64,000 nt of DNA from an uncultured Gammaproteobacteria bacterium (lineage in GTDB: Bacteria > Patescibacteriota > Patescibacteriia > JAHIZJ01), in the NCBI GenBank assembly GCA_964594455.1, contig CAZQLY010000001.1:69989-133988 (forward strand). The letters run 5' to 3'. Numbering within the stretch: the first letter of the stretch is position 1; every line of letters starts with the position of its first letter. The notes beneath the pieces were generated by a model, which did not search any database, was not told the DNA's origin, and saw nothing but the letters and a program-made list of their open reading frames with translations. Of this stretch, positions 2,871 to 31,021 are shown one piece after another. The position numbers and the translations under genes were made by a program.

Positions 2871-3796
2871 AAATGAGGCCATACGTTGTCACGGAGGATG
2901 TGGAGTTCCTGATGCAGTGCTGGGCCCGTGAGATGAACTTTCGTTGTCCTGAGAGTGCTTTTTTCCAAGCGCTCCAGAGTGAACTGTTCGATCATCTGCG
3001 GTCCATATTTCCAGAAGTCGTGAGTATCAGCCATGGAGACATGACTGAACAGCTGAGGCAAGCGATCGCTCGGGCTGAAAGCGGAATTGTTGTTTCGATT
3101 GACCGAGTCTACAATCAGGCGACGCACCGTCTCCAGAGTAATCGGATTGCTGATCTTAACAGCACGAACGTTATCGGTGAGGCGCCGCGTCCCGGTCATC
3201 CTTCACTGCAGGAGCAGATTAGCCTTTTACCGGCCGGCCCCTTAACCTTGGTGGATGACGGTTGCTTCTCTGGGGTAACCCTGAACAAGATTCACGATCT
3301 GCTAGTGACCGATGGGCACAGAGTGTGTTCAGTCATCGTGGGCGTGTTGATCGATCGTTCCAATAATGAGTTCTTGGCCAAACATCCGGACGTGAAGCTG
3401 ATCGCGCTTCAGGAATTTCCTGAGGCGATCGATTGGATCTGCGAGCGCGATTTCTTCATTGGTGTTCCCCTGTCTGGCCGGACCGGTGGGTATCGGGAAG
3501 GAAACGTGGTTACTGCCTGTGATCCTGAGGTAGCTTTGCCATACTGCATACCGTTCGGCGACCCAGTCAGCGGTGCGTCGATTCCGGCAGACCAGGCAAT
3601 CACTTTTTCCAAGAGGGTACTACAGCTCAGCCGACGGCTTTGGGAGGAAGTCGGCCGCGTGTCTGATCGGCCAGTGTTGTGTCGAGACATCCCGCGCCTG
3701 CCGCGTGGTGTATCTCGGGGCGATGAACCGTTTATTGATGCCCTGGACCAGGCTCTGCAGAAGTTGCGGACCAATGGTTCTGAGGCTAGGATGTGA
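2867..3796 (+). CDS. phosphoribosyltransferase-domain protein, lying in a GC-rich islet
   Basis: 'LTLVDDGCFSGVTL' matches the type-I PRTase PRPP-binding motif (hydrophobic x4, DD, xx, S/T-G-x-T). ATGA overlap with the GNAT gene suggests translational coupling. Confidence 0.35.
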   Translation: MKMRPYVVTEDVEFLMQCWAREMNFRCPESAFFQALQSELFDHLRSIFPEVVSISHGDMTEQLRQAIARAESGIVVSIDRVYNQATHRLQSNRIADLNSTNVIGEAPRPGHPSLQEQISLLPAGPLTLVDDGCFSGVTLNKIHDLLVTDGHRVCSVIVGVLIDRSNNEFLAKHPDVKLIALQEFPEAIDWICERDFFIGVPLSGRTGGYREGNVVTACDPEVALPYCIPFGDPVSGASIPADQAITFSKRVLQLSRRLWEEVGRVSDRPVLCRDIPRLPRGVSRGDEPFIDALDQALQKLRTNGSEARM

Positions 3797-3881
3797 GATT
3801 AATTCTTGCATCCTTTTTTTATTTGCTTTTTGGGCTGATAATAGATATAATTATCTTGATTTCATTATTGATATTAAACAC

Positions 3882-4382
3882 ATGAAAAAAACTTTATTTA
3901 TTACGCTGGGGTTGTTGTTAGTGGTCGTAATGGTTGGAGCTAGTTGCGGCCAAAAAGCGGCTGAAGAAAAGATTGAAAATGATATTGAGAGCGCAACCAA
4001 CGGTGACGCCGAAGTAGATTTGGATGATAACAGTGTCAAAGTAAACACCAACGAAGCGACTTTTGAGGCTGGCGAAAGCGTTGATTTGCCAGAAGATTTT
4101 CCATCAGATGTGTTTGTGATTGATGGCACTATCATCGCTGCAGTGACTGTTGAAGAGGGTGATTCCTATTCATTGAACATTCAAACTTCCAAATCAGTCT
4201 CTGACGCCAAAGCTGAATATGAAGAAGAACTAGAAGCTGACGGTTGGGATATAAATGTCTCGATGGATTTAGGCGGCAGTTCTACTATGTCGGCTGAAAA
4301 AGATGATCGGTTGACTACAATCACAATTAGCGAGGTGGATAGTGTCACCACAGTAATTCAGACGACCACTAAGAACGAATAA
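3882..4382 (+). CDS. acidic lipoprotein, hypothetical
   Basis: The true start is the internal Met at 3882: MKKTLFITLGLLLVVVMVGASCGQ is a signal peptide plus lipobox (GASC). The longer ORF beginning at 3573 overlaps the upstream gene and has a different composition. Confidence 0.5.
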   Translation: MKKTLFITLGLLLVVVMVGASCGQKAAEEKIENDIESATNGDAEVDLDDNSVKVNTNEATFEAGESVDLPEDFPSDVFVIDGTIIAAVTVEEGDSYSLNIQTSKSVSDAKAEYEEELEADGWDINVSMDLGGSSTMSAEKDDRLTTITISEVDSVTTVIQTTTKNE

Positions 4383-4390
4383 CATAGTTA

Positions 4391-4852
4391 ATGAGTCAAT
4401 CAGAGGCAACATTGTATCGATCGCGCACCGACCGCATGGTGGGGGGAGTCTGCGGGGGTTTATCCAAATATTATAGCTTGGACCCGATTGTTACCAGACT
4501 GATTTTTGTGGTTCTGGCGTTGGTTGATGGAGTGGGTATACTTTTGTATTTGATTCTACTAGTCATAATCAAGGAAGAACCGGGTGAAAAAGTAGATGTC
4601 GACACAGGTGCAAAAACCAAAGAGTTTATTAATGAAGCTGGTAAAAGATCGCAAGAGGTGGCAAAAAACATAAAAACTAACCAATCTTGGATTGGAGATA
4701 AGCGAAATTTAATAGCCTTGTTGATAATCGTAGTCGGCATAGCCTTGCTATTGAAACAGCTATTTCCAGAAAGACTGGTGCATTGGGAATACGTTTGGCC
4801 CGGCATCTTAATAGTTTTTGGTTTTTATCTAATCACTCGTCATAATAAATAA
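4391..4852 (+). CDS. PspC-domain membrane protein
   Basis: 'LYRSRTDRMVGGVCGGLSKYYSLDPIVTRLIFVVLAL' is the classic PspC N-terminal domain. A C-terminal TM segment follows. Confidence 0.7.
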   Translation: MSQSEATLYRSRTDRMVGGVCGGLSKYYSLDPIVTRLIFVVLALVDGVGILLYLILLVIIKEEPGEKVDVDTGAKTKEFINEAGKRSQEVAKNIKTNQSWIGDKRNLIALLIIVVGIALLLKQLFPERLVHWEYVWPGILIVFGFYLITRHNK

Positions 4853-5912: not shown

Positions 5913-6557
5913 TTGGAGTTGGTTATGATAAAAAACGTAATCTTTGATTGGTCCGGAGTTTTGGATGATAATTTAATGACTCAGTATTGTGCCAGTATGG
6001 AAGTACTTAAGTCATGTGGTGTTAAGCGTATTTCTTTAAAAGAATATCGTGAAGAGTTTGATTTACCTTACATGGTGTTTTATCGAAAATATAGTCCTGG
6101 TATTACCAAGAAGCATCAGGATGAAGTCTTTAAAAAGGCCTTTCCTAAATGCCCAAAATCAAAATTATATCCTGGAATGAAAGCCCTTCTTAAGAGGTGT
6201 GAGAGTTCGGATAAAAAAATATATTTGGTTACATCGGATCATAAAGTGTATCTAGATAATCTTTTAAAGAAATACGGTATCAGCCGAATGTTTGCAGATA
6301 TTAAGTACAGCGTTCACAATAAATATAGCTGTATAAATAATATAATAAAAAAGGAAAAGCTGAATAAAACGCAAACAATATTTATTGGTGATACCCTAAA
6401 TGAGGTTGCTGTCAGTAAAAAACTTAGTATTAAATCAGCTGGCGTGACTTGGGGCATTTGCAGCTATCGTAAACTCAGACAAGCTAAACCGGATTATATT
6501 TTTCAAAACATAAAAAATATGAATAAAGTAATTTTTTCTGAAAATGAGCCCAAATGA
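5913..6557 (+). CDS. HAD-superfamily hydrolase
   Basis: HAD motif I 'IFDWSGVLDD' (DxD) and motif IV 'FIGDTLNE'. Confidence 0.6.
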   Translation: MELVMIKNVIFDWSGVLDDNLMTQYCASMEVLKSCGVKRISLKEYREEFDLPYMVFYRKYSPGITKKHQDEVFKKAFPKCPKSKLYPGMKALLKRCESSDKKIYLVTSDHKVYLDNLLKKYGISRMFADIKYSVHNKYSCINNIIKKEKLNKTQTIFIGDTLNEVAVSKKLSIKSAGVTWGICSYRKLRQAKPDYIFQNIKNMNKVIFSENEPK

Positions 6558-7554
6558 ATATCTAGCCGATCGGCTAAAAAAAAGTGCTCAGACAATAGAC
6601 AGCAAAAAAGTTCTGAAGAATGAAGAATTAAAGGAGTTCATTTTTAAGACCTTAATGTCCAAGAAATTCCGCAAGTGGGGCGTTGGTGATGAATATACCC
6701 AAGAAGTCAAAGACTCTGCTAAATATGTAGTGGAGAAAGACATACCACTTAACACTACTTGGTTTTTTGGCGGTTACAAGCTCTGGAGTCTGCCTAGTAG
6801 TCCCGAAGCAGATTGGGCGGAGTTTTTTGCAATTAGCTATCTGCTCAGATATATTGCTCCGATTGCCCAGGCCCATCAGCCTGGAGTGGCGATGACGTTT
6901 TGGGCGGCCCATCCTTCGATTATGAAACGCCAGAGCAATATTCCTGAAGAAGAGTGCCGAACTTATCATGAGTCATTTAGAAAGTTAATTGCTGAGTTTC
7001 AGCCTCATCTTCCAGCCAATATTAAATTAGAGTTGAGAGGTTTTGATGAGCTTTATCCGGACGAAAAAGAGTATACCGACGAGCTGGAACCTTTAATAAA
7101 AGAGGTGGAAAAAGAATATGAAGCCTGGCCTCAGGACCGAAAGGATAAAAAAAGAGCCACTTCAGTGTTAAATATTCAGTGGAACGGAGCAGAAGATTTG
7201 GAAAAACTCTCAGTATCTGAAAAAGAAGCAAGAATAAAAAACGGTCCAATAGTGCACGATGGATATTGCCGTCTTTCTAAAATCAACCAGGTCATCCGCG
7301 GTTTGGGAAAGATAGATTTAACAGCTACACCTTTACCAAAAAGAAATTCCATTACCGTTGGTACAACTTCCTCATCCGTTGCTAAATTCTGGGCTGGTGT
7401 TGGTGTTTTGGAAAGAAAAGGCGATTCATTCTCAGATCGTATCTTGTCGCCTAAGCAATTTCAGCAAAAAAAAGATGCACAGCATGAGGTTGTACCATCA
7501 AATTTGATCAAACAAAAAAACTTCCAAAAAATCTGGATATTCCCCGAGTCTTAA
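6544..7554 (+). CDS. hypothetical protein
   Basis: 336-aa ORF with good coding composition and no recognised motif. Confidence 0.3.
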   Translation: MSPNEYLADRLKKSAQTIDSKKVLKNEELKEFIFKTLMSKKFRKWGVGDEYTQEVKDSAKYVVEKDIPLNTTWFFGGYKLWSLPSSPEADWAEFFAISYLLRYIAPIAQAHQPGVAMTFWAAHPSIMKRQSNIPEEECRTYHESFRKLIAEFQPHLPANIKLELRGFDELYPDEKEYTDELEPLIKEVEKEYEAWPQDRKDKKRATSVLNIQWNGAEDLEKLSVSEKEARIKNGPIVHDGYCRLSKINQVIRGLGKIDLTATPLPKRNSITVGTTSSSVAKFWAGVGVLERKGDSFSDRILSPKQFQQKKDAQHEVVPSNLIKQKNFQKIWIFPES

Positions 7555-9476: not shown

Positions 9477-10280
9477 CTATTTTCTAAACTTTTGGAATAT
9501 CAAAACTGAAATAAACAACAGGGTTGATGTTAGCACTATGGTCGGACCGGTTGGTAGGTCTAAATAGTATGAAAGAATAATACCGGCCACCATTGTGATT
9601 TCAGCCAGTAATAAGGTAATGTACTCCAGGCTTTTGAGTGATTTAGCCAGTAGTTTGCCGGTAGAAGGCGGGATGATCAATAAGGCGCTGACTAAAATTA
9701 TTCCCAGCACTTTAACGCCCAGCACCACTGAAACGGACAAGGCAATATAAAGAGTTATTTCCAATAAGGTAACATTGATCCCGGCTAAGTAAGCGCTTTC
9801 CCGGTCAAATATCATCAGGGCAATCTTATTCTTCTTGGCGATATGCAACAAGATCAAAAGTGCCGCCACCACGCCAAAATATATTAATTCCGTGGTCTTG
9901 ATCGCCAGAATATTTCCGAATAAAAAGCTGATCAATTCAGGCTGATACCCCGATTGCAGACTGATCAACAAAACTCCCAGCGACATGCTGGCCGTAAAAA
10001 TAATTCCGATAATGGTGTCTGAAGACAGGACTGTTTTATTTTCTAGATAGTAAATAATAATTGCCAAGATAATGCCAAAGATAACCGCTACTGGCAGGGG
10101 GCTGACTCCAGTTATGATCCCGATAGCTATCCCGGCCAGTGAAGCGTGAGCAATCCCATCTCCAAAGAAAGCCATTTTTCTCAGCATGACAAAGATTCCC
10201 AAATAGGCCAGCAGTCCGGCTAATATCACGCCGGCTATTAGAGCTCGCTGAATAAATGGATATTGAAGCAACTCAATCAT
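9477..10280 (-). CDS. znuB: metal (zinc/manganese) ABC transporter permease, ABC-3 family
   Basis: Multi-TM protein containing 'FFGDGIAHASLAGIAIG' and following the typical ZnuB/TroC pattern. Lies in an operon with the ATPase and substrate-binding-protein genes. Confidence 0.7.
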   Translation of the reverse strand: MIELLQYPFIQRALIAGVILAGLLAYLGIFVMLRKMAFFGDGIAHASLAGIAIGIITGVSPLPVAVIFGIILAIIIYYLENKTVLSSDTIIGIIFTASMSLGVLLISLQSGYQPELISFLFGNILAIKTTELIYFGVVAALLILLHIAKKNKIALMIFDRESAYLAGINVTLLEITLYIALSVSVVLGVKVLGIILVSALLIIPPSTGKLLAKSLKSLEYITLLLAEITMVAGIILSYYLDLPTGPTIVLTSTLLFISVLIFQKFRK

Positions 10281-10989
10281 GTTTGGGATATTTATGTTGA
10301 TAGAGCGCTACATCTTGGCTATAAAGTGATTTCAACGTGTTTTCGTTGATTACATTTTCCGGTTTACCCGTGCATATAAGTTTACGATTCAAACAGATTA
10401 CCTGAGAAGCGTATTGGAAAACTATGTCGATTTCATGAGAAACCAGCACAACCGTAACATCGTGTTCGGTATTAAGATGTTTAATCAGATCATAGAAATT
10501 TTTCTCTCCCGTGATATCAATGCCGGAGACCGGCTCGTCAAAGAAAATTATCTTTGGCTCATTTACCAGCGCTCGGGCAATTAACACCCTTTGTATTTGA
10601 CCGCCTGATAATTTGCCAAGAATGAGATCTTGTTTCCCAGACAGGCCAACTTCTTTTAATGGGATATTAGTATCAGAATTTCTGTGTTTATCGTCTAGCG
10701 ACAATTTTAAAAATTCCCCAACTGTGATTGGGTAGGTTTTATCAAAGCTGAATCTTTGAGGGACGTAGGCAATATCTTGTCTAGCTAATGAAGGTTTTTT
10801 GTCCAGAATTGAGATTTCTCCATCTGATGGTATTAATCCGAGTAAAGCTTTTAATAATGTTGTCTTGCCAGAGCCATTGGGTCCAATCACTGCACAAATA
10901 GATTTTTCTTCCACTGTAAAATTAAGTCTTTCTAAGACAGTAAGATTGCCGTATTTGACTGTCAGGTTTTTTACTTGGACAGCTAGCAT
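10273..10989 (-). CDS. znuC: metal ABC transporter ATP-binding protein
   Basis: Walker A 'GPNGSGKTT', ABC signature 'LSGGQIQRVLIARAL', Walker B 'IIFFDEP'. Confidence 0.8.
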   Translation of the reverse strand: MLAVQVKNLTVKYGNLTVLERLNFTVEEKSICAVIGPNGSGKTTLLKALLGLIPSDGEISILDKKPSLARQDIAYVPQRFSFDKTYPITVGEFLKLSLDDKHRNSDTNIPLKEVGLSGKQDLILGKLSGGQIQRVLIARALVNEPKIIFFDEPVSGIDITGEKNFYDLIKHLNTEHDVTVVLVSHEIDIVFQYASQVICLNRKLICTGKPENVINENTLKSLYSQDVALYQHKYPKHD

Positions 10990-16245: not shown

Positions 16246-16635
16246 TGGTGGAGATGAGGGGAATTTCACCCCTGTCTGGAAAGGTCTCCAAAAACCTTCT
16301 ACCAACATAGTCTGTTTATAAGGATTCGAGCAACAAGGTCGAAACAGACAAAAAACTTGTTACTCTAGTCTCAGTTGCCCAGAACGATCTGCTGAAACAC
16401 CTAGATCGTTAGCCCTGATAAATGACACCCGGGTTTCTCCTATCAGGAGTCAGAGAATCGGATGGTCGCTGGTTATTTAAGCAGCGACAGGAGCTAAGCT
16501 AAATGATGCGAAAGCATTCTTTAGTTTAGCCAATTTTGACTTGGCATTTGTCTTGTGACCAGTTTTTTTACAGAGATCTGAGACTCTGATTGGCCGGTGT
16601 TTGAATGTGCTTTCCGTCGATTATTAAACATCCCC
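16246..16635 (-). ncRNA. ssrA: tmRNA (SsrA)
   Basis: Minus-strand 5' end GGGGAUGUUUAAUAAUCGACGGAAAGCAC parallels the canonical GGGG...AUUCGACGG start. The 3' end GGGGUGAAAUUCCCCUCAUCUCCACCA is a T-arm plus acceptor stem ending in CCA, with G3:U70 pairing. An internal reading frame ends ...SFSLAPVAA followed by UAA. smpB lies immediately adjacent. Confidence 0.65.
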
Positions 16636-16753: not shown

Positions 16754-17200
16754 CTACCTTTTTAAAGCTCGGCGAATGCGTCGATCGGTTTCGCGTTTCT
16801 TTATTGTTTCACGCTTATCTGACTTCTTTTTTCCGCGTCCGATTCCGCCCTTGAGCTTAATCAGGCTGCCTCTAGTATATAGAGACAAGGGCATTAATGT
16901 CAAGCCTTGAGAGGCTCCTTTCCCGATCAGGCTTTTTATCTCACTTTTTTTCAAAAGAAGCTGGCGTTCGCGAGTGGGTTTATACTTTCTCTGGACGCTT
17001 TTGGCGTATTTATAAGGTGAGATATGACAATTGACCAGAATCGGAACATTATTCCTGATAGATATGTAGCTCCCTTTGAGTTGTACTTGTCCGCTTTTCA
17101 CAGATTTCACCTCGGGTCCAGTCAATACAATACCGGCCTCGAATTCGTCTTGAATATCGTAGCTGTACCGAGCGTATTTATTTGTGGCTAAAGTTGGCAT
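16754..17200 (-). CDS. smpB: SsrA-binding protein SmpB
   Basis: 'YDIQDEFEAGIVLTGPEVKSVKSGQVQLKGSYI' and a basic C-terminal tail, as expected for the SmpB family. Confidence 0.85.
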   Translation of the reverse strand: MPTLATNKYARYSYDIQDEFEAGIVLTGPEVKSVKSGQVQLKGSYISIRNNVPILVNCHISPYKYAKSVQRKYKPTRERQLLLKKSEIKSLIGKGASQGLTLMPLSLYTRGSLIKLKGGIGRGKKKSDKRETIKKRETDRRIRRALKR

Positions 17201-21125: not shown

Positions 21126-22838
21126 GTGGTAAATAAAACATCAAGCGAAAAGAAATTATTATCAATCAGCCAAGTGTCGAAAATCTTTGGTATCCACCAA
21201 GATACACTTCGTAATTGGGAGAAAAAAGGACTCATTACTCCTCTCCGGGTGGGTCCTCGTAAGGACAGAAAATATCGCCCTCAAGATATTGAAAGAATCG
21301 CCAACGATAAAAGTCTCGTAGATGAATTTATTTCTCCGGTGGCTGATGAGCGAGGGAAAATGAATCTCACCCAGTTAAAGCAGTTTCTCTGGAGAAGCGC
21401 TGATATATTACGTGGAAAAATCGATAGTTCCGATTACAAAAAGTATATTTTTGGACTTCTTTTTTATAAGCGCATTAGTGATGTGTGGGATGAAGAATAT
21501 AAAAAAGTTTTGGAAGAGTTTCACAATGAAGATTTAGCACGCAGTGATCACAATCACCGCTTTCAGGTTCCAAAAGATTGTCAGTGGTCAGAGATTCAAA
21601 AACAGGCAGAAGGAATCGGGCATAAGCTCAACGAAATTTTTGATAAACTTACCAACGCAAACAACCCGAAGCTGGATAAGATATTTGATGATCTTGATTT
21701 TGCGAATAAGGACAAATTTCCTAATGAGACACTCCAGCGTCTGGTCAATCATTTTTCTCAATTCAATTTTGGCGATAATTATATCAGTTCCGATCTTTTG
21801 GGTGACGCATACGAATACCTTATTGAGCAGTTCGCGGCGGATGCTGGAAAAAAAGGTGGGGAGTTCTACACACCCCGTGAAGTAGAGCGTGTAATTATTA
21901 ATATTTTGAAACCGCACGAAAAAGACCACATCTATGACATGGCGGCTGGTTCGGGCGGGTTCTTACTCGAGGCATATCATTATCTTAAAAGTCAGGCAAG
22001 CGAAAAAAAAGCTCGCTCACTGTATCTCTATGGCCAAGAAATAAATATTGGCACATACGCGATTGCAAAGATTAATATGTTTCTGCACGGACTTGATGGT
22101 GCGGACATTCAGCGCGGTGACACGCTAGCGGATCCGAAATTTCTCAATCCCGATGGCTCACTTAAAACATTCGACATTTGCGTGGCAAATCCACCATATT
22201 CTGTAAAAGAATGGGAAACTGAAACATTTAGAGCCGACAAATACGGTCGGATTACTGACTATGAAATGCCCCCGACCAAAAAAGCCGATTATGCCTTTGT
22301 TTTACACATGGTGAAGTCAATGAATGAAAATGGTCGTGCCGGAATTGTACTTCCCCATGGCGTGCTTTTCCGTGGTGGTGCAGAGGGTCGTATCCGCGAA
22401 AAACTCATCAAAGATGATCTCATTGAAGCAATTATTGCTTTACCGCCTAAACTATTTTATGGCACAGGGATACCTGCAGCGATCGTAATATTTAATAAGA
22501 ATAAACCAGAGGAACATAAGAATAAAATTCTCATCATTGACGCTGAAAAGGATTTCGAGGAGGGGAAAAATCAAAATCGCCTTCGCAAGAAAGATATTGA
22601 GAAAATCGTTTTAGCCTTTGATGGGTATCGGGATATAGAAAAATATGCCCGTGTAGTAGATATTAAAGAATTAGAAGAAAACGAATTTAATCTAAATGTT
22701 CGTAGATATATTGAGAATGGTGAGGATGAGGAAGTGGTGGATGTCAAAACAGTATGGAGCGAGTTAAAGGATATTGAAAAAGAGCGCGAGGTGGTTGATA
22801 AAAAAGTCGAGGGGTATTTAAAGGAGTTGGAGTATTAA
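21126..22838 (+). CDS. hsdM: Type I restriction-modification system methyltransferase HsdM, with an in-frame N-terminal HTH (excisionase/MerR-like) extension
   Basis: 'NPPYS' N6-adenine methyltransferase motif. HsdM N-domain 'LWRSADILRGKIDSSDYKKYIFGLLFYKRISD'. The first ~78 residues ('ISQVSKIFGIHQDTLRNWEKKGLITPLRVGPRKDRKYRPQDIERI') look like an HTH_17/Xis-type DNA-binding domain. The ORF begins at GTG 21126. An internal ATG at 21360 (MNLTQLKQFLW...) matches canonical HsdM starts. Confidence 0.85.
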   Translation: MVNKTSSEKKLLSISQVSKIFGIHQDTLRNWEKKGLITPLRVGPRKDRKYRPQDIERIANDKSLVDEFISPVADERGKMNLTQLKQFLWRSADILRGKIDSSDYKKYIFGLLFYKRISDVWDEEYKKVLEEFHNEDLARSDHNHRFQVPKDCQWSEIQKQAEGIGHKLNEIFDKLTNANNPKLDKIFDDLDFANKDKFPNETLQRLVNHFSQFNFGDNYISSDLLGDAYEYLIEQFAADAGKKGGEFYTPREVERVIINILKPHEKDHIYDMAAGSGGFLLEAYHYLKSQASEKKARSLYLYGQEINIGTYAIAKINMFLHGLDGADIQRGDTLADPKFLNPDGSLKTFDICVANPPYSVKEWETETFRADKYGRITDYEMPPTKKADYAFVLHMVKSMNENGRAGIVLPHGVLFRGGAEGRIREKLIKDDLIEAIIALPPKLFYGTGIPAAIVIFNKNKPEEHKNKILIIDAEKDFEEGKNQNRLRKKDIEKIVLAFDGYRDIEKYARVVDIKELEENEFNLNVRRYIENGEDEEVVDVKTVWSELKDIEKEREVVDKKVEGYLKELEY

Positions 22839-22841
22839 ATA

Positions 22842-24293
22842 ATGAAAACAGAGATTTCTAACAATAGGATGATAAATGGGCAAACGAAAAATTTGCAAAT
22901 TAAACATTTAAGCAAAGTAAATGTTATTTTTGGCAAAAATGGAACTGGTAAAAGTAGTTTCTTAAGAAATCTCTATCAATCAGATTCAGAGAATTTTCAC
23001 TTAATTGTACCTGAGAGAGGTGGTGCAGAAATGCGGCAAAATTCTGGGATATTAGATCAGGAAAATAATCCTCAACAAAAGAAGGCAGTTAGAAGATGGA
23101 ACTTCGATTCAGAATATCGAAGCAGAGCAATTTCTAGAGCAACTAACATTCTCACTTCACTGGGATACAATACGGCCCATAACATTCAATCCAAAGAGGT
23201 GTCAGCTGAGGAATTAACTACACTATTTAGGGTTTTCTTGCCGGAGTTTAAAGTAATATTTAACTCTAGCGCCCCGTTTAATCTTGAAATTTTCCGTGAG
23301 ATTAATGGAAATGAAGAAAAAATAACAGATGCAAAGCAGTTATCTTCTGGGCAAGTTGAAGCATTATCACTAGCCGCAGATATCATTACTCAAGCCATTT
23401 TGTGGGACGCGACAGAAAAAACTCTCTTAATTGATGAACCCGATGTTCACCTTCATACTGATTTAGAAAACAGATTTGCAATTTTTATTAATGAGATAGC
23501 CAAAAGATTTGGCGTACAAGTTATTATTGCCACCCATTCTTCCGGCCTAATCGCAAGCTTACTGAGTTTAATAAAAGAAGTTGGAATTTTATGCTTTGAT
23601 AAAAATAGTGAAGAGATTTCTGCTATACAGAAGGATCAGGCATCTATTTTTACAAATTTATTGAGCATTGAGTTGTCCTTGGCGGTCGTTTTGAATAGGA
23701 AAATAGTCATTGTTGAAGGCAATGATGATTTTCTGGTTTGGAATCAGGCAACACGTTCGCAGCAATTTGACGATATTGCATTAATACAGGCGAATGGTAG
23801 CGATATATTAAAATACAAAAATAATGCGGAGAAAATTTTAGAAGCTGTTCTTGATAGAAATTGTCAACTTGGTGTTACTTTACTTGATGGTGATAACAAA
23901 CAAAAGTTTACTAATCAACAAAATGATAAACTACCTTGCGAAAGATTAAATTGTTATAGCTTAGAAAACTTATTGTTAACCAACGAAGTTCTACAAATAA
24001 TCAAACCTGACATTGATCTGAACAACGAACTTAAAGTTCTTAAAGGTGAAGATAATATTACCGATGATGAAAAAAATATTCTTGATGGGGTTATTAAGGA
24101 CAAACAACACACAAAAATACCCAAGGAACTGATAAAAAAAATTCATTCATATATTGACGAACACTCATCGTCACGCGATTGGAGAATTATTATTGGTAAA
24201 AGTCTGGGTATAAATATGCCCTCTGGGGAATTAGCGTCTTTTTTAGGGGGAGACATTGTGAAATATATTTGGAATGAGAATAAAGAAATATGA
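22842..24293 (+). CDS. ABC-type ATPase fused to a Toprim-like domain (OLD-family / PARIS AriA-AriB-like / GajA-like nuclease)
   Basis: Walker A 'GKNGTGKSS', ABC signature-like 'QLSSGQVEALSLA', Walker B 'LLIDEPDVHLH', H-loop 'ATHSS'. C-terminal 'KIVIVEGNDDF' ... 'LLDGDNK' resembles the Toprim/DUF4435 E and DxD motifs. Sits directly after the hsdM stop. Confidence 0.55.
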   Translation: MKTEISNNRMINGQTKNLQIKHLSKVNVIFGKNGTGKSSFLRNLYQSDSENFHLIVPERGGAEMRQNSGILDQENNPQQKKAVRRWNFDSEYRSRAISRATNILTSLGYNTAHNIQSKEVSAEELTTLFRVFLPEFKVIFNSSAPFNLEIFREINGNEEKITDAKQLSSGQVEALSLAADIITQAILWDATEKTLLIDEPDVHLHTDLENRFAIFINEIAKRFGVQVIIATHSSGLIASLLSLIKEVGILCFDKNSEEISAIQKDQASIFTNLLSIELSLAVVLNRKIVIVEGNDDFLVWNQATRSQQFDDIALIQANGSDILKYKNNAEKILEAVLDRNCQLGVTLLDGDNKQKFTNQQNDKLPCERLNCYSLENLLLTNEVLQIIKPDIDLNNELKVLKGEDNITDDEKNILDGVIKDKQHTKIPKELIKKIHSYIDEHSSSRDWRIIIGKSLGINMPSGELASFLGGDIVKYIWNENKEI

Positions 24294-24682
24294 CAGAAGT
24301 TGAAAAATTACAAATCTCAATTAGTCGAGAGCACTCTGATGTTAAGGGTGAAATCAGTGAAATTTTTAAAGATCTAAATGCTAGTGTTAAGGCAGACTAC
24401 GTGCGCCTTTCTGAAAGCGAGCTAGCGATGCAGGTGATTATTTTTTTAACAACTGCTTTTGCGGGTGGAGCACTGTGGGATGTACTAAAGTGGTCGATAA
24501 AAGAGCTGTATAAAAAACACCCTAAAGCGATGGTTGAAATTCGTGATTCGGATTCTATTATGTACGCGGTTAAAGGAGACTTAAGTATTACGGTGATAGT
24601 TGCCCCAGATAGGGCAAAAGAGTTTGAACACATAAACACGCTCGACGATTTACGGAAGCATTTAGAGTCGACTAAAAGATGA
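24290..24682 (+). CDS. hypothetical small protein, translationally coupled partner of the ATPase-Toprim gene
   Basis: ATGA overlap with the upstream gene. 130 aa with no recognised motif. Confidence 0.4.
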   Translation: MTEVEKLQISISREHSDVKGEISEIFKDLNASVKADYVRLSESELAMQVIIFLTTAFAGGALWDVLKWSIKELYKKHPKAMVEIRDSDSIMYAVKGDLSITVIVAPDRAKEFEHINTLDDLRKHLESTKR

Positions 24683-24837
24683 AAAATAATACAACACAAA
24701 AGAATATTCCGAGCGGGTGGAAACTAAAAAAATTGAGTAATGTTTTGGATTATGAACGACCAGATGCCTATATTGAAAAAAAGCGCGGGATTGTTGACAA
24801 AAAAGTTGGAGGGTATTTAAAGGAATTAAAATATTAA
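24679..24837 (+). pseudogene. chimeric remnant ORF: hsdS 5' fragment (~33 codons) fused in frame to the hsdM 3' end (~19 codons)
   Basis: Nucleotides 24679-24778 are ~90% identical to the hsdS start at 25722-25820. Nucleotides 24781-24837 are ~80% identical to the hsdM 3' end at 22782-22838. The joint lies at the shared microhomology ATATTG(A/T)AAAAAG. Translation gives MKNNTTQKNIPSGWKLKKLSNVLDYERPDAYIEKKRGIVDKKVGGYLKELKY*. Confidence 0.6.
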
Positions 24838-24840
24838 TTT

Positions 24841-25239
24841 ATGAACGAGAAAAGACTAAAACATTTGGAGTTAATTCAAGGGGTCGTCACCAGAATGGGC
24901 TCAAATCTCTTTACATTAAGAGGTTGGATGATAACGCTTGTCGTCGGTCTGTCTGTTGCTTTTTTGGAGGTTGGGCGTAATGAATTGCAAATTATACTAG
25001 TATTCGTTGTTTTAATATTTTGGATCCACGATGCGTACTTCCTTTCTTTGGAGCGAAGCTACCGATGCATGTACGACAAAGTTAGGAAATTAACAGAGGA
25101 TGAGATTGATTTTTCAATGGATATTTCGGAATTTAATAAGTTAAGGGCGACATCCATTTGGTACTGCATGATATCCGGTACTCTGGCGTATTTTTATATA
25201 CCGACTCTCGTATTGATAGGAATAATAAGTATATTTTAA
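24841..25239 (+). CDS. small three-TM membrane protein (SLATT-like / TM effector candidate)
   Basis: 132 aa with three predicted hydrophobic helices (WMITLVVGLSVAFLEV; IILVFVVLIFWI; IWYCMISGTLAYFYIPTLVLIGIISIF). Starts 3 nt after the chimeric scar and ends 2 nt before the TIR gene. Confidence 0.5.
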   Translation: MNEKRLKHLELIQGVVTRMGSNLFTLRGWMITLVVGLSVAFLEVGRNELQIILVFVVLIFWIHDAYFLSLERSYRCMYDKVRKLTEDEIDFSMDISEFNKLRATSIWYCMISGTLAYFYIPTLVLIGIISIF

Positions 25240-25241
25240 TT

Positions 25242-25721
25242 ATGACAAGAAAAATATTTTACAGTTTTCGTTTTGATGACGACGTAATGAGGGTTCAGCA
25301 AATCCGAAATATAGGAGTTATCGAAGACAACAAGCCTGTTACGGCTAACAAATGGGAAGAAATTAAAAGTGGCGGTGATTCTGCGATTCAAAAATGGATT
25401 GATGCTAGCATTGCCCGATCTGAATGCGTCGTTGTGTTAATTGGAAAAAATACTTCACAAAGTCGTTGGGTTGATTACGAAATCAGAAAAGCTTGGAACG
25501 ATGGTAAGGGCTTAGTGGGTATCTACATTCACAATTTAAAAGACCCAAGGTATGGAACCTCTGATAAAGGCACCAATCCTTTTGAACAGATAGGATTAAA
25601 AAATGGAAAAAAATTATCTGAATATGTTTCTGTTTATAACCCAGACACAGATGCCTACAACTATATAGCTAAATACATAGATCAAATTGTCGAGAAAGGA
25701 ATCGATTCGCGGAATAAATAA
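25242..25721 (+). CDS. TIR-domain protein, ThsB-like (DUF1863-type)
   Basis: 'KIFYSFRFDDD' (TIR βA FxSY..D start), 'VVVLIGKNTSQSRWVDYEIRKAW' with a conserved Glu near residue 80, and 'GLVGIYIHN'. This pattern resembles Thoeris ThsB-type TIR proteins as recalled from memory. Confidence 0.55.
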   Translation: MTRKIFYSFRFDDDVMRVQQIRNIGVIEDNKPVTANKWEEIKSGGDSAIQKWIDASIARSECVVVLIGKNTSQSRWVDYEIRKAWNDGKGLVGIYIHNLKDPRYGTSDKGTNPFEQIGLKNGKKLSEYVSVYNPDTDAYNYIAKYIDQIVEKGIDSRNK

Positions 25722-26882
25722 ATGAAAACTGACACAATACAACAAAATACTCCGAGTGGATGGAAACTCAAAAAATTGAGTGATGTTTTGGATTATGAAC
25801 GACCAGATGCCTATATTGTAAAAAGTACAAGCTACAACGACAAAGCAAAGACCCCAGTGCTTACCGCAAACAAATCCTTTATCTTGGGATATACAGATGA
25901 GGATTTCGGAATTTATAAAAATGTTCCTGCAATAATTTTTGATGATTTTACCACTGACAGCAAGTTTGTAGATTTTCCGTTTAAGGTTAAGTCTTCAGCG
26001 ATTAAAATCTTAAAAGAAAAAAATAAAGAGATAGATCTGCGATTTGTATTTGAAAAAATGAAGTCAGTGAATTTCCCTACAGGAAGTCATAAGCGTTTCT
26101 ATATTTCGCAGTATCAAAATTTAGACATAACAGTTCCCCCGATCAAAGAACAGCAAAAGATTGCAGAGATATTGGGAGGAGTTGATGAGGATATTGCGAA
26201 GACGCAGGAAGTGATTGAGGCGACCGAGAAGCTCAAGCGCGGATTGATGCAACAGCTTTTTACTCGCGGGATTGGGCATACAAAGTTCAAAGATACAGAG
26301 ATTGGAGAGATTCCAGTAGAATGGAAGTTGGAACAATTAAGAGATGTGGCTGATTTTATAAACGGAAAAGCACACGAAAGAGATATTACTGAATATGGTC
26401 ATTATGTTGTTATCAACTCAAAATTTATTTCTACAAATGGAGAGGTTGCAAAACGTTCAGATAAAAATTTGATCCCATTAAGTATTGGGGATATTGCAAT
26501 GGTAATGAGCGATGTCCCTAATGGCAAGGCGATTGCAAAATGTTTTTATGTTTTAGAAAATAATAAGTATACCCTGAATCAGAGAATCTGCTCACTTCGT
26601 GCAAAAAATATCTATAGTAGATTTTTGTATTATGTCGTAAACAGAAATCAATATTTTCTTAAACATGACGACGGAGTTGGACAAACAAATTTAAGAAAAG
26701 ATGAAGTGTTAAACTGCCCCGTCCAAGTTCCGCCAATTAAAGAACAGAAAAAGATCGTCAGAATTATTGAAGCTGTCGATGAAAAGATTTTGATTAATAA
26801 GAAATTAAAAGAAAAACTTACCCAACTCAAAAAAGGCCTGATGCAGGATCTTTTAAGTGGGATGAAGAGAGTAAAAATATGA
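25722..26882 (+). CDS. hsdS: Type I restriction-modification system specificity subunit HsdS
   Basis: Two target-recognition-domain halves, each followed by a conserved 'PPIKEQ(Q/K)KI..IL..VDE.I' repeat (residues ~139 and ~334). Gene position between hsdM and hsdR. Confidence 0.85.
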   Translation: MKTDTIQQNTPSGWKLKKLSDVLDYERPDAYIVKSTSYNDKAKTPVLTANKSFILGYTDEDFGIYKNVPAIIFDDFTTDSKFVDFPFKVKSSAIKILKEKNKEIDLRFVFEKMKSVNFPTGSHKRFYISQYQNLDITVPPIKEQQKIAEILGGVDEDIAKTQEVIEATEKLKRGLMQQLFTRGIGHTKFKDTEIGEIPVEWKLEQLRDVADFINGKAHERDITEYGHYVVINSKFISTNGEVAKRSDKNLIPLSIGDIAMVMSDVPNGKAIAKCFYVLENNKYTLNQRICSLRAKNIYSRFLYYVVNRNQYFLKHDDGVGQTNLRKDEVLNCPVQVPPIKEQKKIVRIIEAVDEKILINKKLKEKLTQLKKGLMQDLLSGMKRVKI

Positions 26883-27562
26883 AAGATGATATGGAGAAAA
26901 AATGGGAACAAAATCATTTGACTCTTTGGCAGGATGATTCCTCACGAATAGAAGAATTCTTCAAACGATTTGGTGTAGAAATGTCGCAATCCTATAATAA
27001 TCTTTTCAATCTGGATTATGATTTCATCCAGCCAGCTATTTATCTAATTGGGAAAATTGAGAAGGTCATAGAGGTATGCGATTTTTTGAACTCTCTTGCG
27101 AAAAATAATCATGATGACGTTGATAAGATTAAAATATTTTATTTAGTTTCACATGCCGAAATTATTATCAATACTTTTACCGCAAATTCGGCCGGTATGA
27201 ATAAAAGTGATTTAGTTGATTCCTTTTTTGAGCCCGTTAAGGATAAATTACAGTATACCTTGCAGCTCACGAGTGAGGATACGAATAAATTAAGCAAAAT
27301 GAATCAACAAATTACTCCAAGCAGGATATTGTACAAATTGCGCAACGAATATGCTCATCAGGGTAATTTTACGGGTAAGATTTTTAAATTGCTCACAGAT
27401 GAAGAAAAGGTATCCAACCTATTTTCGTTCGATTGGGATATCCCGAAAGCACAACCGCTTGATGTTTGTGGTCTAACAAGATTAACATACGATCAGTTTC
27501 TTCATATATATTTTTCAGCTTTTAAGTGGCATTTTGAAGACTATATAAAAAAACATTCATGA
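26879..27562 (+). CDS. hypothetical protein with a HEPN-like R-x4-H motif, embedded between hsdS and hsdR
   Basis: 'KLRNEYAHQG' fits the Rx4-6H HEPN signature. ATGA overlaps with both hsdS and hsdR. Otherwise no recognised motif. Confidence 0.3.
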   Translation: MKDDMEKKWEQNHLTLWQDDSSRIEEFFKRFGVEMSQSYNNLFNLDYDFIQPAIYLIGKIEKVIEVCDFLNSLAKNNHDDVDKIKIFYLVSHAEIIINTFTANSAGMNKSDLVDSFFEPVKDKLQYTLQLTSEDTNKLSKMNQQITPSRILYKLRNEYAHQGNFTGKIFKLLTDEEKVSNLFSFDWDIPKAQPLDVCGLTRLTYDQFLHIYFSAFKWHFEDYIKKHS

Positions 27563-30477
27563 AATTTAACGAACAGGTAACAGTAGAAAATTATATTATC
27601 AAGTTTATTCAAAATAAGCTTGGTTATGAATACGTTAAGCCAGAGGAATTTGCTAAATACCGTGATCTTGAGAGTGAATATATTATCACCCCACTTTTAG
27701 AGAATGCTATTAAGAACCTCAATCAAGATATTACAGAAAATGAAATTAAAAATGTCATTCGCGAAGTCAAAAAGATTGATACAAATCAAGGTTTCCTAGA
27801 GGCCTTGAGAAACGGAGTTAACTTAAAAAATCCCAAGACAGGCAAGAAGCACGATTATAAATTACTTGATTTTGAGAATCCTGAGAATAATCAATTTGTC
27901 GTTACCAATCAATTTTATTTCGAGGGCGACAGTGAGAATATTCGACCTGATGTTATGATTTTTGTTAACGGATTGCCACTTGTGGATATTGAAGCAAAGA
28001 GCCCGACTGCCTCAGAGGGTGTCAGCTTTGAGAATGGAATGGATCAGATTAAGCGATACGAAAAGGTAGCCCGAAAATTATTCATTCCAAATTGTTTTAA
28101 TATTGCTAGTGACGGACTTAAAACGGTATATGGCGCGACTGGCGCACCGAAACAGTACTTTTTTCAATGGCGCGATGAGGATAAAGAAAAAGAGATGGGT
28201 GGCGAACTTGAGATGACCTTGTTTGCACTTTTAGCAAAGGAAAATTTCTTGGATATTGTGCAGAATTTTATACTGTTCGAAAAAGAGAAAGAAATGCTCG
28301 TGAAGAAAATTACTCGATATCAACAAATGCGTGCGACGAATAAGATTGTCGAGCGAGTGGTGAATAAGGAAAAGCGACAAGGTTTAATTTGGCACACACA
28401 AGGTTCAGGTAAGACATTAACCATGTTTTTCACTGCGTGGAAATTACGCTTTAATAAATTGTTGAATAATCCAAAGGTTTTTATTTTGGTTGACCGAGTT
28501 GATTTAGATGATCAGATATTTGAAACGTTTACTAACGCCGGGGGTAAAAATGTCATTCGTGTTATTTCCCGAAAAGATTTAGAAGAGAAGATTCAGTCCC
28601 CAATGAGTGGTATATTTATCACTACCATTCAAAAATTTTCAGAACTCGGTAGCAAGGTAGAAAATTTAGAAGAGAATGTGATTATTCTTTCTGATGAAGC
28701 ACACCGCGGTGATGAGGGAGTGTCAGGTATTAATATGCGTAACGCATTTAAAAAAGCGTTTTTCTTCGGGTTTACTGGTACGCCAATCGATAAAACGCAT
28801 ACAAATACATTTCGCAATTACGAAGGTGAGGGTAAGCGCTATCTTGATTATTATTCCATTCAGCAGGCAATTGATGATGGCGCGACCATTCCCGTTACCT
28901 ATGAAGCGCGGTTGTCTAAGTTTTCTATTGATGAGGAAAAGTTAGATCAGCAGTTTGATGAGATTGCTGGTGATCTTTCAGATAAGCACAAAACTGAATT
29001 GGTAAAGAAATATGGAAAGAAGGCAGCACTTGTGAAACTACCAAAACGTATGGAGGCAATAGCACGTGATATAGTGGAGCATTATAAACTATATATAGAA
29101 CCGAATGGCTTTAAGGCGCAAGTTGTGGCTTACGATCGTGAAGCTGTTGCTGGGTATAAAAAGTTACTTGATGAATTAGTGCCAGCTGAATGGTCTGCCG
29201 TGGTGTATTCGCCCGGTGATCCCAACAGTGATGCCGATGATCTGAAGGCGTATAACACGAGCAAAAACGAGAGAGAGAAGATTATTGAACGATTTAAAGA
29301 TCCGAAATCTCCTCTTAAATTTCTTTTAGTCTGTGATATGTTGCTGACTGGTTTTGATGCACCTGTTGAACAAGTAATGTACCTGGATAAACCACTCCGC
29401 GATCATAATTTATTGCAAGCGATCGCGCGAACGAACAGGGTTTACAATAAAAAAAAGGAAGCGGGAAAAATCATTGATTATTATGGGATAACTAGGAACT
29501 TATACGATGCGCTTGATTTTGATGAGGATATAGTCGATTCCGCGATGATTGATATAGATAGAGTCAAGCAAAGGTTCACTGATGTGTTGGATGATGTCAT
29601 GAAGATTTTCACTGGGGTCAATATTGAGGACCCTTCAATGGATAATTTGCGGCGTTGTTTAAAAATTTTCATTGATAATCAAGATAAGCAAAAATATTTT
29701 GTCGAAAAATATACGAAACTTAAGAGCTTATTTGAATTTTTATCGCCAGATCCATTCTTGAAACAGTATGTCCGCAAGTTTGAATGGCTCACCAGTTTTT
29801 ATCTAGCTTTTTTGAAAGAATATCGTAGTGAAGAGGATAGATATTTACTGGAAGAATATGGTGAAAAAGTAAAAGAACTGATTCAAAAGAGTGATATTAT
29901 TGACTACGAAGGTATAACTAAGAATTTTCGGGAGCTCAAGGTCAATGAATTGTATACCCTTGAACGTCTCAAAGGCATGGACGACGAGGAAAAGGCGCTC
30001 AATTTGGAGAAAATGCTTAAGCAGGAAATTTCTATTAAACTTGATGAAGATCCTGCCTTCCAAAAGTTTAGCGAGCGCCTCACGGCAATACGGCGAGAGT
30101 TCGAACAAAATCAAATTGATCTTGCTGAGAGGATTCGCAGATATGAGGAATTAATGAAAGATATTAAATCTAAAGGTGATGAAGCCAAGGAGCTAGGGCT
30201 TGATCTAAAAGAATATGCACTATATGTGATCTCTCAGGAGTTTGCTAGTGATAAAGAGGTGGATGTTATTAAAGAGTTCGTTAGAGAGTTACGCGTTCGT
30301 ATTGAGGATGATCTAGACGCTGGTTGGCAAGATTCTTCAAAACGCGACGTATTTATTAAGGATATCAAACAAACCTTGCAAGAATTGATTTTAAAAGACT
30401 ATAAAGGCCGACTGAAGGTTAAAGATTTTCCAAAATTCATGAATAGACTTGTAGATATCATTATCAAGAAATTCTAA
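27559..30477 (+). CDS. hsdR: Type I restriction enzyme endonuclease/helicase subunit HsdR
   Basis: SF2 helicase motif I 'TQGSGKTLTMFF' and motif II 'LSDEAHRG'. 972 aa. Gene position after hsdS. Confidence 0.9.
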   Translation: MKFNEQVTVENYIIKFIQNKLGYEYVKPEEFAKYRDLESEYIITPLLENAIKNLNQDITENEIKNVIREVKKIDTNQGFLEALRNGVNLKNPKTGKKHDYKLLDFENPENNQFVVTNQFYFEGDSENIRPDVMIFVNGLPLVDIEAKSPTASEGVSFENGMDQIKRYEKVARKLFIPNCFNIASDGLKTVYGATGAPKQYFFQWRDEDKEKEMGGELEMTLFALLAKENFLDIVQNFILFEKEKEMLVKKITRYQQMRATNKIVERVVNKEKRQGLIWHTQGSGKTLTMFFTAWKLRFNKLLNNPKVFILVDRVDLDDQIFETFTNAGGKNVIRVISRKDLEEKIQSPMSGIFITTIQKFSELGSKVENLEENVIILSDEAHRGDEGVSGINMRNAFKKAFFFGFTGTPIDKTHTNTFRNYEGEGKRYLDYYSIQQAIDDGATIPVTYEARLSKFSIDEEKLDQQFDEIAGDLSDKHKTELVKKYGKKAALVKLPKRMEAIARDIVEHYKLYIEPNGFKAQVVAYDREAVAGYKKLLDELVPAEWSAVVYSPGDPNSDADDLKAYNTSKNEREKIIERFKDPKSPLKFLLVCDMLLTGFDAPVEQVMYLDKPLRDHNLLQAIARTNRVYNKKKEAGKIIDYYGITRNLYDALDFDEDIVDSAMIDIDRVKQRFTDVLDDVMKIFTGVNIEDPSMDNLRRCLKIFIDNQDKQKYFVEKYTKLKSLFEFLSPDPFLKQYVRKFEWLTSFYLAFLKEYRSEEDRYLLEEYGEKVKELIQKSDIIDYEGITKNFRELKVNELYTLERLKGMDDEEKALNLEKMLKQEISIKLDEDPAFQKFSERLTAIRREFEQNQIDLAERIRRYEELMKDIKSKGDEAKELGLDLKEYALYVISQEFASDKEVDVIKEFVRELRVRIEDDLDAGWQDSSKRDVFIKDIKQTLQELILKDYKGRLKVKDFPKFMNRLVDIIIKKF

Positions 30478-30481
30478 TACA

Positions 30482-31021
30482 ATGACTAATCGCATTACCT
30501 ATACCGTAAAAAGAAGCAAGCGAGCAAAACTAATGCGTCTCGCGGTGTATTGTGATGGTCGGGTTGTAGTAACTGCCCCTATAAATATTCAGGAGTCAAT
30601 AATTCAAAAAATCGTACGGGAGAAGAGTCAATGGTTAGTCCAAAAGATAGATTTTTTTGCACAATTTAAAAATCAACCGATAGCTCGATATAGTAGAAAT
30701 CATTTTCTACAACACAAGGAGAGTGCTCACGAGTTTGTGTCATCGCGCCTAGCCAATCTAAACAAAAAATATGGTTATAATTATAATCAAATTAACATAA
30801 AAAATCAGAAAACTCGCTGGGGTAGTTGTTCAAAAAAAGGAAATTTGAATTTTAATTATAAAATAAAGTTTTTACCAACAAAATTGGCCGACTATATTAT
30901 TGTGCATGAGCTTTGTCATTTGAAAGAGTTTAACCATTCGCGTAAATTTTGGAACCTAGTTGGTAGAACTTTTGCAAATTATAAGGACATCAGAAAGGAA
31001 ATGGTCGCATGGAGAGTGTAA
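30482..31021 (+). CDS. DUF45/YgjP-like (M48-related) zinc metallopeptidase
   Basis: 'IIVHELCHLKEFNHSRKFWNL' is the HExxH...NHS..FW signature of DUF45. The family is frequently hsdR-linked. Confidence 0.75.
   Translation: MTNRITYTVKRSKRAKLMRLAVYCDGRVVVTAPINIQESIIQKIVREKSQWLVQKIDFFAQFKNQPIARYSRNHFLQHKESAHEFVSSRLANLNKKYGYNYNQINIKNQKTRWGSCSKKGNLNFNYKIKFLPTKLADYIIVHELCHLKEFNHSRKFWNLVGRTFANYKDIRKEMVAWRV

Follow-up and report, generated by a model that had tools for sequence, protein, structure and literature searches.

A compact ABC ATPase-Toprim protein of the OLD/PARIS superfamily embedded in a type I restriction-modification operon

Defence nucleases in which an ATP-binding cassette (ABC) ATPase works with a Toprim domain are known from the PARIS and OLD systems. 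We compare with them ORF-A, an open reading frame (ORF) for a 483-amino-acid (aa) ABC ATPase-Toprim protein that lies directly behind hsdM in a stretch of 64,000 nucleotides (nt) of contig CAZQLY010000001.1 (positions 69,989 to 133,988; assembly GCA_964594455.1), here called the window. In PARIS, the inserts IS1 and IS2 of the ATPase AriA build a hexameric propeller that sequesters the nuclease AriB, and Ocr activates the system. Ocr is the trigger of PARIS as Stp is the trigger of PrrC.

Single-gene PARIS fusions were reported with the discovery of the system (PMC9122126), and AriB, which has the acidic set E26, D30, D88, E90 and E122, is active only as a dimer and cleaves tRNA (PMC11464382). 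The classes of OLD proteins are defined by genetic context; class 1 consists of single-chain ATPase-Toprim proteins without a partner, said to stand apart from other defence genes (PMC10568477), and a DNA-nicking class 1 OLD defends Vibrio cholerae (PMC12392090). ABC ATPase-TOPRIM genes have also been reported embedded in Hma systems, where plaque assays showed phage defence by the fused HEC-04, and embedded genes are frequent in BREX, DISARM and type I restriction-modification (R-M) systems as well (Payne et al. 2024 preprint, 10.1101/2024.01.29.577857). The same authors discuss the possibility that embedded PARIS or Gabija is triggered by phage Ocr inhibiting the surrounding system, and name PrrC as a case of an R-M-embedded backup (10.1101/2024.01.29.577857).

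Our analysis makes it probable that ORF-A is a compact single-chain defence nuclease of the OLD/PARIS superfamily that has no dedicated partner and is carried as cargo in R-M operons, that the 130-aa ORF-B overlapping its end is an HsdS N-terminal domain, and that the present gene order was produced by recombination of two type I operons.

ORF-A and its two domains

The gene and its parts are located in the window as follows.

22842-24293, + strand: ORF-A, 483 aa, ABC ATPase-Toprim (ORF list, Pfam, PADLOC)
22842-23627, + strand: ORF-A residues 1-262, minimal ABC ATPase head with Walker A K37, signature S168/G170, Walker B D198-E199 and H-loop H232 (Pfam, profile, AlphaFold2)
23628-24293, + strand: ORF-A residues 263-483, AriB/DUF4435-type Toprim nuclease domain and helical C-terminal region (PADLOC, AlphaFold2, Foldseek)

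An earlier reading of the sequence, which we call the original prediction, had proposed an ABC ATPase-Toprim fusion with a coupled 130-aa partner at this place. The ORF list and a check of the junctions returned the same coordinates for ORF-A and ORF-B, the same position after hsdM and the same ATGA overlap between the two frames. The ATPase and Toprim motifs that it had quoted are all present, and they are invariant or nearly so in an alignment of 49 ORF-A homologs (alignment A1), from which the profile used below was built.

In the ATPase part, Pfam found AAA_21 (3.5e-15, 57.3 bits with a cut-off of 27) and AAA_15 (1.3e-11, 45.2 bits with a cut-off of 32.1). Near-invariant or invariant across the 49 homologs are G31, N33, G36, K37 and S38 of Walker A, S168 and G170 of the signature, D198, E199, P200, D201, H203 and H205 of Walker B and the D-loop, and H232 and S233 of the H-loop. 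When the A1 profile was compared with PDB sequences, PARIS AriA ranked first (3e-15), followed by PtuA of the retrons Ec83/Ec78, Eco8 OLD, TsOLD and GajA. The AriA alignment was limited to AriA 13-47 and 295-445; those of TsOLD and GajA span Walker B into the Toprim glutamate, and TsOLD 6p74 covers query residues 188-317. A full-length AlphaFold2 (AF2) model (pLDDT, the predicted value of the local distance difference test, 90; predicted template modelling score, pTM, 0.81) retrieved PtuA, SMC/Rad50 heads, GajA and OLD in Foldseek, a result dominated by ABC ATPases and uninformative on the C-terminal domain. The AbiLi model of PADLOC matched the ATPase part of ORF-A alone (3.3e-14).

The ATPase head is a short one. 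The Walker A lysine (K37) is 161 residues from the Walker B aspartate (D198), compared with about 350 residues in AriA (K39 to ~392), so that ORF-A has ~190 residues fewer in this interval. The AF2 model places four short helices at residues 68-132 as the only ATPase insert, and as modelled the head is minimal and lacks the hexamer-forming inserts IS1 and IS2 that make up the AriA blades. The strand behind the Walker A helix is followed by a PERGG motif at residues 57-61 (window 23010-23024), where the Q-loop of ABC proteins falls. The motif is family-specific, with E58 and G61 invariant and P57 and R59 at least 90% conserved.

Could this head belong to a housekeeping ATPase of the ABC, RecF or SMC type, engaged in repair or transport? 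Matches to the ABC_tran, SMC_N and RecF profiles were obtained, but all were weak and far below the cut-offs, and the best matches were defence ATPases. The protein also carries a fused nuclease domain and has a patchy distribution in islands, and conserved synteny with core genes is absent. A housekeeping function is therefore scarcely credible, in line with the original prediction.

The C-terminal half of ORF-A is an AriB/DUF4435-type Toprim, a conclusion on which several independent lines converge. Residues E292, G293, D295 and D296 of VEGxDD and D349 and D351 of DxD are conserved across the 49 homologs, which share in addition an invariant CxxxENL (C371, E375, N376, L377). The best full-length PADLOC model was fused AriAB (1.7e-18, residues 117-436), and the isolated C-terminal domain matched AriB as its sole PADLOC model (7e-5). 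When 36 C-terminal domains of the family were compared with PADLOC, 19 matched AriB (best 1.5e-8), eight AriAB and four GajA. The Pfam family DUF4435 (PF14491) was matched weakly by 15 of the 49 members (best E 3e-5) and OLD-like_TOPRIM (PF20469), also weakly, by 10 (best 7e-4); AriB-type models scored better. DUF2813 was matched by 21 members.

Structure prediction pointed to the same relative. A separate AF2 model of residues 258-483 (pLDDT 93, pTM 0.88) has the Toprim order of strand, glutamate, helix, strand, helix, strand, DxD and strand. Foldseek comparison of this model with 350,000 PDB chains gave AriB (8ux9_A) as the sole credible match (E 2.8e-3, prob 0.91); all other matches had a prob of 0.30 or less, and no OLD or GajA Toprim was among the top 50. 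Five invariant residues of ORF-A, E292, D296, D349, D351 and E375, occur in the same order as the acidic set of AriB, with similar spacing. The OLD/PARIS assignment of the original prediction was thus borne out by PADLOC, Foldseek and the residues, and the Toprim can be specified further as AriB/DUF4435-like. The profile searches that it had suggested succeeded for AAA_21 and AAA_15, which were above cut-off, and failed for the Pfam Toprim families DUF4435 and OLD-like_TOPRIM in ORF-A itself, with weak matches in relatives.

ORF-A therefore shares with PARIS, whether fused AriAB or separate AriA and AriB, an AAA_15/AAA_21 ABC ATPase and a DUF4435-type Toprim with five acidic residues. AriAB is its best PADLOC model, and AriA and AriB are the best solved relatives of its ATPase and of its C-terminal domain, respectively. 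It differs in that it falls short of the 694-position fused AriAB profile by ~200 residues and lies below Pfam DUF4435 detection. As had been predicted, 483 aa is also below the size of TsOLD (528 aa) and of GajA (575-598 aa).

A class 1 OLD-type DNA nuclease, which would attack phage or host DNA and have neither a tRNA target nor an anti-restriction trigger, is a possible but clearly less probable identity for the protein. Like P2 Old, Thermus scotoductus OLD and V. cholerae OLD, ORF-A combines an ABC ATPase at the N-terminus and a Toprim at the C-terminus in one polypeptide, has no conserved partner gene, and shows the acidic set expected for a two-metal Toprim site; a partnerless single chain of this kind is what defines class 1 (PMC10568477). 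The DUF2813 (21/49) and OLD-like_TOPRIM (10/49) matches, the TsOLD and GajA alignments that cross Walker B into the Toprim glutamate, and the precedent of the nicking class 1 OLD of V. cholerae (PMC12392090) are also in its favour. However, the Toprim of ORF-A groups with AriB and not with the OLD/GajA profiles: the AriB and AriAB models matched 19 and 8 of the 36 C-terminal domains, and more strongly, whereas GajA/OLD models matched 4; AriB is the sole credible fold match; and fused AriAB is the best full-length model. The ATPase helical insert of ORF-A (about 80 residues) is shorter than in class 1 OLD, and the close ORF-A clade, unlike class 1 OLD as described, adjoins R-M genes in all nine loci examined.

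Other known systems were considered and rejected. GajA of Gabija, a class 2 OLD, is likewise an ABC ATPase-Toprim fusion, and its alignment with ORF-A runs from Walker B through the Toprim glutamate, but GajA is about 100 residues longer and has a helical insert in its Toprim. A UvrD-like GajB is absent from the operon by Pfam, as the original prediction had it, and none recurs in 63 loci, while GajA models match only 4 of the 36 C-terminal domains. A retron-associated OLD (class 3, Eco8) does not fit, with no reverse transcriptase domain in the operon and only a transfer-messenger RNA (tmRNA) found by Rfam in the window. AbiL/RloA-RloB was set aside for want of an RloB match: RloB (PF13707) had no match to the C-terminal domain of ORF-A at E<=10 and was absent among the 25 families most matched by the 49 members. 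HEC-04 resembles ORF-A as a fused ATPase-TOPRIM nested in a multi-gene immune operon, with a backup role, set off by anti-restriction factors, proposed for it as for PrrC. The 25 best PADLOC models for ORF-A do not include it, indicating that ORF-A is a different family; PrrC differs in having an anticodon-nuclease domain and no Toprim.

The ORF-A family and its restriction-modification neighbours

A search of 5.8 billion proteins gave 129 ORF-A homologs of uniform length, about 475-490 aa, and at least 462 relatives, spread over many phyla, turned up when a single genome per species was scanned. The closest relatives of both ORF-A and ORF-B come mostly from assemblies of Patescibacteria (Candidate Phyla Radiation). 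Since both have conserved homologs elsewhere, neither is a chance ORF.

Close homologs of ORF-A (48-71% identity) lay in or beside R-M operons in nine of the nine loci examined, and the operons differed in kind and in the position of the homolog.

L092, L094: type I, hsdS-[ORF-A homolog]-hsdR
L005, L006: type I, hsdS-[ORF-A homolog]
L084, L095: ORF-A homolog with type IIG Eco57I/MmeI-like enzymes
L093: EcoRI-like methylase-[ORF-A homolog]...BroN-GmrSD/HNH
L086: ORF-A homolog with two N6_N4 methylases
L007: DpnI-N6_N4 methylase-[ORF-A homolog]

The suggestion of the original prediction that a PARIS-like module inside an R-M operon would make functional sense gains comparative support from these nine loci. 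The embedding of the close clade fits a backup role like that of PARIS and PrrC, a proposal already in print under the name "guilt by embedding".

Within type I operons, the junctions around ORF-A and its homologs measure 0-7 nt (the window, L092, L094), with the gene between hsdM and hsdS or between hsdS and hsdR. Such tight insertion, together with the precedent of PrrC and EcoprrI, would agree with an accessory that physically belongs to the type I enzyme, is held latent by HsdMSR, as PrrC is, and is not autonomous. We think this unlikely: equally close homologs lie beside type IIG enzymes, DpnI/N6_N4 genes and EcoRI-type methyltransferase/GmrSD genes, which have no subunit in common with type I, and R-M neighbours are absent for most remote members of the family.

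No neighbour family recurred across 63 full-length ORF-A loci, and a Pfam scan of 115 ORF-A neighbours found nothing recurrent except a few R-M genes and integrases. The family is patchy and occurs in variable low-GC island contexts beside integrases, transposases and R-M genes.

Several of the sampled operons hold further embedded genes. The type I operon of L092 that carries an ORF-A homolog also embeds RhuM and DUF2513 genes between hsdM and hsdS (3056-4767). In L094, a 212-aa ORF, an AbiEii protein and a 100-aa ORF lie between hsdM and hsdS (2644-4845), and a gene with a DCD (Dev_Cell_Death) domain follows hsdR. In L001, an EcoRI-like methylase is followed by an ORF-B homolog (10001-10393) and then GmrSD_N-HNH; in L093 the same slot after the methylase (6001-7452) is occupied by an ORF-A homolog plus a Bro-N protein, and L091 has a Bro-N gene ahead of an ORF-B homolog and hsdS. 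Within this sample of R-M operons, the genes act like exchangeable cargo.

How might ORF-A act? All its residues for ATP binding, ATP hydrolysis and metal binding are intact and invariant. By analogy with ABC ATPases and AriB, ATP binding would drive a head-to-tail dimer of two ATPase heads and so bring two Toprim domains together, the ATPase serving as an infection sensor that gates dimerisation. Given the R-M embedding and the precedents of PARIS and PrrC, the most likely trigger would be a phage anti-restriction factor or a disabled neighbouring R-M system. The AriB-type Toprim slightly favours tRNA as the substrate, in which case cleavage would lead to translation arrest and abortive infection; alternatively, the enzyme may cleave DNA as OLD and GajA do.

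A number of results weigh against reading ORF-A as an AriB-type nuclease carried by R-M operons. ORF-A itself had no Pfam match to DUF4435 or OLD-like_TOPRIM even at E<=10, and so lies outside the original PARIS detection rule, which used DUF4435 at its gathering score. A profile of the C-terminal domain (A4) gave chance-level matches only against PDB sequences, with no solved AriB or OLD among them. The global superposition on AriB was weak despite the E value of 2.8e-3 (template modelling score 0.31/0.24, root-mean-square deviation 15.6), and a score of about 0.3 implies that the C-terminal domain is a divergent AriB-type member. The equivalence of the acidic residues of ORF-A and AriB is inferred from their order and spacing only. 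Because ORF-A is a single chain without the AriA inserts, the PARIS mechanism, release of free AriB, cannot apply to it. Finally, only about 6 of the 57 loci from remote clades (25-31% identity) adjoin type I genes, a count made by blastp/phmmer with the Hsd proteins of the window (6/63 loci) that is insensitive and probably too low; R-M embedding is thus a trait of the close clade and not of the whole family.

ORF-B as an HsdS N-terminal domain

ORF-B had no match in Pfam, PADLOC, NCBIfam or the PDB. A moderately hydrophobic helix lies at residues 43-68. A word-indexed protein search returned two other proteins only, one of which is flanked by an EcoRI-like methylase and a GmrSD_N-HNH gene and has no ATPase in its vicinity. 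An exhaustive profile search was more productive and gave 68 cluster representatives (P0124-P0191), of which 29 are stand-alone, 19 have 500-560 aa and 11 have 200-330 aa, the remainder including fragments. Among the 30 longer forms, 20 (20/68 representatives) are HsdS proteins (Methylase_S) with the ORF-B domain at the N-terminus. Other longer forms include one with a PemK/MazF toxin domain (P0180), one with DUF7701, and six that end in 3-4 membrane helices (P0133, P0144, P0152, P0159, P0169, P0181). The membrane part of the ~286-aa fusions was compared with PDC-M50A, a membrane protein encoded further down the operon, and was not homologous.

Stand-alone copies of the domain occur directly upstream of hsdS, their usual place, or of GmrSD-HNH genes. 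Those in front of hsdS in three further contigs have the arrangements hsdM-B-hsdS, hsdM-289aa-B-hsdS and BroN-B-hsdS (L089, L090, L091). From these sequence comparisons, ORF-B is best described as a split-off HsdS N-terminal domain, which makes it part of the R-M system and not a partner of ORF-A.

The original prediction had taken the 130-aa protein for a coupled partner of the ATPase, and on this point it was not upheld. In six-frame hidden Markov model scans of the collected loci, 86 loci held an ORF-A relative and 8 an ORF-B relative, and the overlap was zero in any reading frame. A dedicated two-gene system, with ORF-B as regulator, adaptor or antitoxin of the nuclease, is accordingly most improbable. 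The ATGA overlap would speak for it, as would the scar described below, which indicates that ORF-A and ORF-B already shared the space from an hsdM end to an hsdS start when a second cassette joined them, and the fusions of the ORF-B domain with membrane modules and with a PemK/MazF toxin, which are reminiscent of promiscuous adaptor or antitoxin domains. But besides the absence of co-occurrence, there is no conserved downstream gene in the 63 ORF-A loci, 20 of the 68 representatives carry the domain as a fusion with HsdS, and ORF-B is ATGA-coupled just as closely to the relic hsdS start behind it. ATGA overlaps are found at hsdS/227-aa ORF, at 227-aa ORF/hsdR and at ORF-B/scar ORF as well as at ORF-A/ORF-B, where the TGA of ORF-A (24291-24293) overlaps the ATG of ORF-B (24290). 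As ATGA is the default junction in this operon, the last of these is not specific evidence of partnership.

A bolder idea, to which we give a slim chance, is that the ORF-B domain is an adaptor that docks embedded effectors, possibly including ORF-A, on the methyltransferase/specificity complex. On this view the effector would stay latent under the control of the R-M enzyme until that enzyme is disabled, which would generalise the logic of PrrC and EcoprrI, and the scar might record the stacking of guarded cargo by recombination of sister R-M loci.

Operon layout and the recombination scar

Apart from ORF-A, the genes of the operon and their relics are the following.

21126-22838, + strand: hsdM, type I methyltransferase with an N-terminal MerR-type helix-turn-helix (HTH) (Pfam N6_Mtase 1.1e-109, HsdM_N 9.6e-27; PADLOC MTase_I 5e-146)
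24290-24682, + strand: ORF-B, 130 aa, free-standing copy of the ~125-aa HsdS N-terminal domain (profile search)
24679-24837, + strand: scar, a 52-codon chimeric relic ORF, hsdS start::hsdM end (direct repeats, translation)
24841-25239, + strand: 132-aa membrane protein PDC-M50A, second cargo cassette (PADLOC PDC-M50A 5.5e-39)
25242-25721, + strand: ThsB-like TIR protein PDC-M50B, second cargo cassette (Pfam ThsB_TIR 3.3e-26; PADLOC ThsB 2e-65, PDC-M50B 3.3e-56)
25722-26882, + strand: hsdS, specificity subunit without the ORF-B-type N-terminal extension (Methylase_S 1.8e-33, two stretches; PADLOC Specificity_I 1e-60)
26879-27562, + strand: 227-aa ORF between hsdS and hsdR (ORF list)
27559-30477, + strand: hsdR, restriction subunit (SWI2_SNF2 1.8e-69, HSDR_N 1.6e-39, ResIII 3.4e-27; PADLOC REase_I 6.9e-140)
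30482-31021, + strand: YgjP-like (DUF45) metallopeptidase, last gene of the operon (Pfam YgjP-like 2.4e-42)

By the ORF list, ten genes on the + strand fill 21126-31021 with junctions of -4 to +4 nt throughout; the spacer between the hsdM stop (22838) and the ATG of ORF-A (22842) is 3 nt. The presence of hsdM, hsdS and hsdR in one operon identifies the host operon as a type I R-M system (Pfam, PADLOC). The G+C content is 0.33-0.39 at ~22-33 kb and 0.40-0.48 in the flanks, and the low-G+C region is an apparent island, its pattern being as expected for acquired DNA.

The scar ORF of 52 codons begins in an ATGA overlap with ORF-B and reads MKNNTTQKNIPSGWKLKKLSNVLDYERPDAYI followed by EKKRGIVDKKVGGYLKELKY and a stop codon. 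A direct repeat, 24674-24781 and 25717-25824 (87% identical), makes the first 32 codons a copy of the hsdS start; another, 24770-24845 and 22771-22846 (82% identical), matches the last ~20 codons to the hsdM end and takes in the junction with the gene that follows. Where the repeats meet there is an 11-nt microhomology, ATATTGAAAAA. The simplest reading of these repeats is that two diverged type I operons recombined illegitimately and so stacked two cargo cassettes, ORF-A with ORF-B and the membrane protein with the TIR protein (PDC-M50), each of which would formerly have stood between hsdM and hsdS. The scar also indicates that translation of ORF-B was coupled to that of hsdS, which agrees with the fusions found elsewhere. 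The putative parental operons, hsdM-A-B-hsdS and hsdM-membrane protein-TIR-hsdS, were not found in two metagenome scans for close ORF-A relatives, the first with too specific and the second with too generic patterns.

The other genes add some detail. PDC-M50 is a candidate system of PADLOC, and both components are present here as the pair of membrane and TIR proteins, with the genes 2 nt apart. The pair sits between the scar and hsdS, and the operon has no ThsA-like partner. The 227-aa ORF, a third embedded gene in the operon, had no significant family match in Pfam, PADLOC and further family searches. A YgjP-like gene also follows hsdR in locus L015. In HsdM, residues 13-70 (window 21126-21340) match MerR_1 (2.1e-12) ahead of HsdM_N, and this MerR-type HTH could provide separate transcriptional regulation of the methyltransferase or the operon. 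Promoter and terminator scans were at chance level, and no internal terminator was seen. Outside the operon, the tmRNA gene (window 16246-16635, - strand, Rfam 101.7 bits) lies beside smpB (16754-17200, - strand), an ordinary arrangement.

Both the architecture of ORF-A and its embedded context are of kinds already known, as the single-gene PARIS fusions and the embedded ATPase-TOPRIM genes show, and ORF-A is a compact, divergent addition to them. The ~125-aa domain shared by ORF-B and HsdS and the hsdS'::'hsdM scar appear to be undescribed; the scar is direct sequence evidence for the accumulation of embedded cargo. With ~260 residues of ATPase and 220 of nuclease and no AriA scaffold, ORF-A is a minimal single-chain nuclease of the PARIS/OLD type, and it offers a convenient case for testing how an AriB-type Toprim could be gated by ATP-driven dimerisation of the heads with no release step. 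At least 462 species-level genomes in many phyla make this a large family. The Pfam DUF4435 and OLD Toprim models match other members weakly and miss ORF-A at E<=10. The ties of the close clade to unrelated R-M types lend comparative support to the published idea that such embedded nucleases may serve as a backup against anti-restriction.

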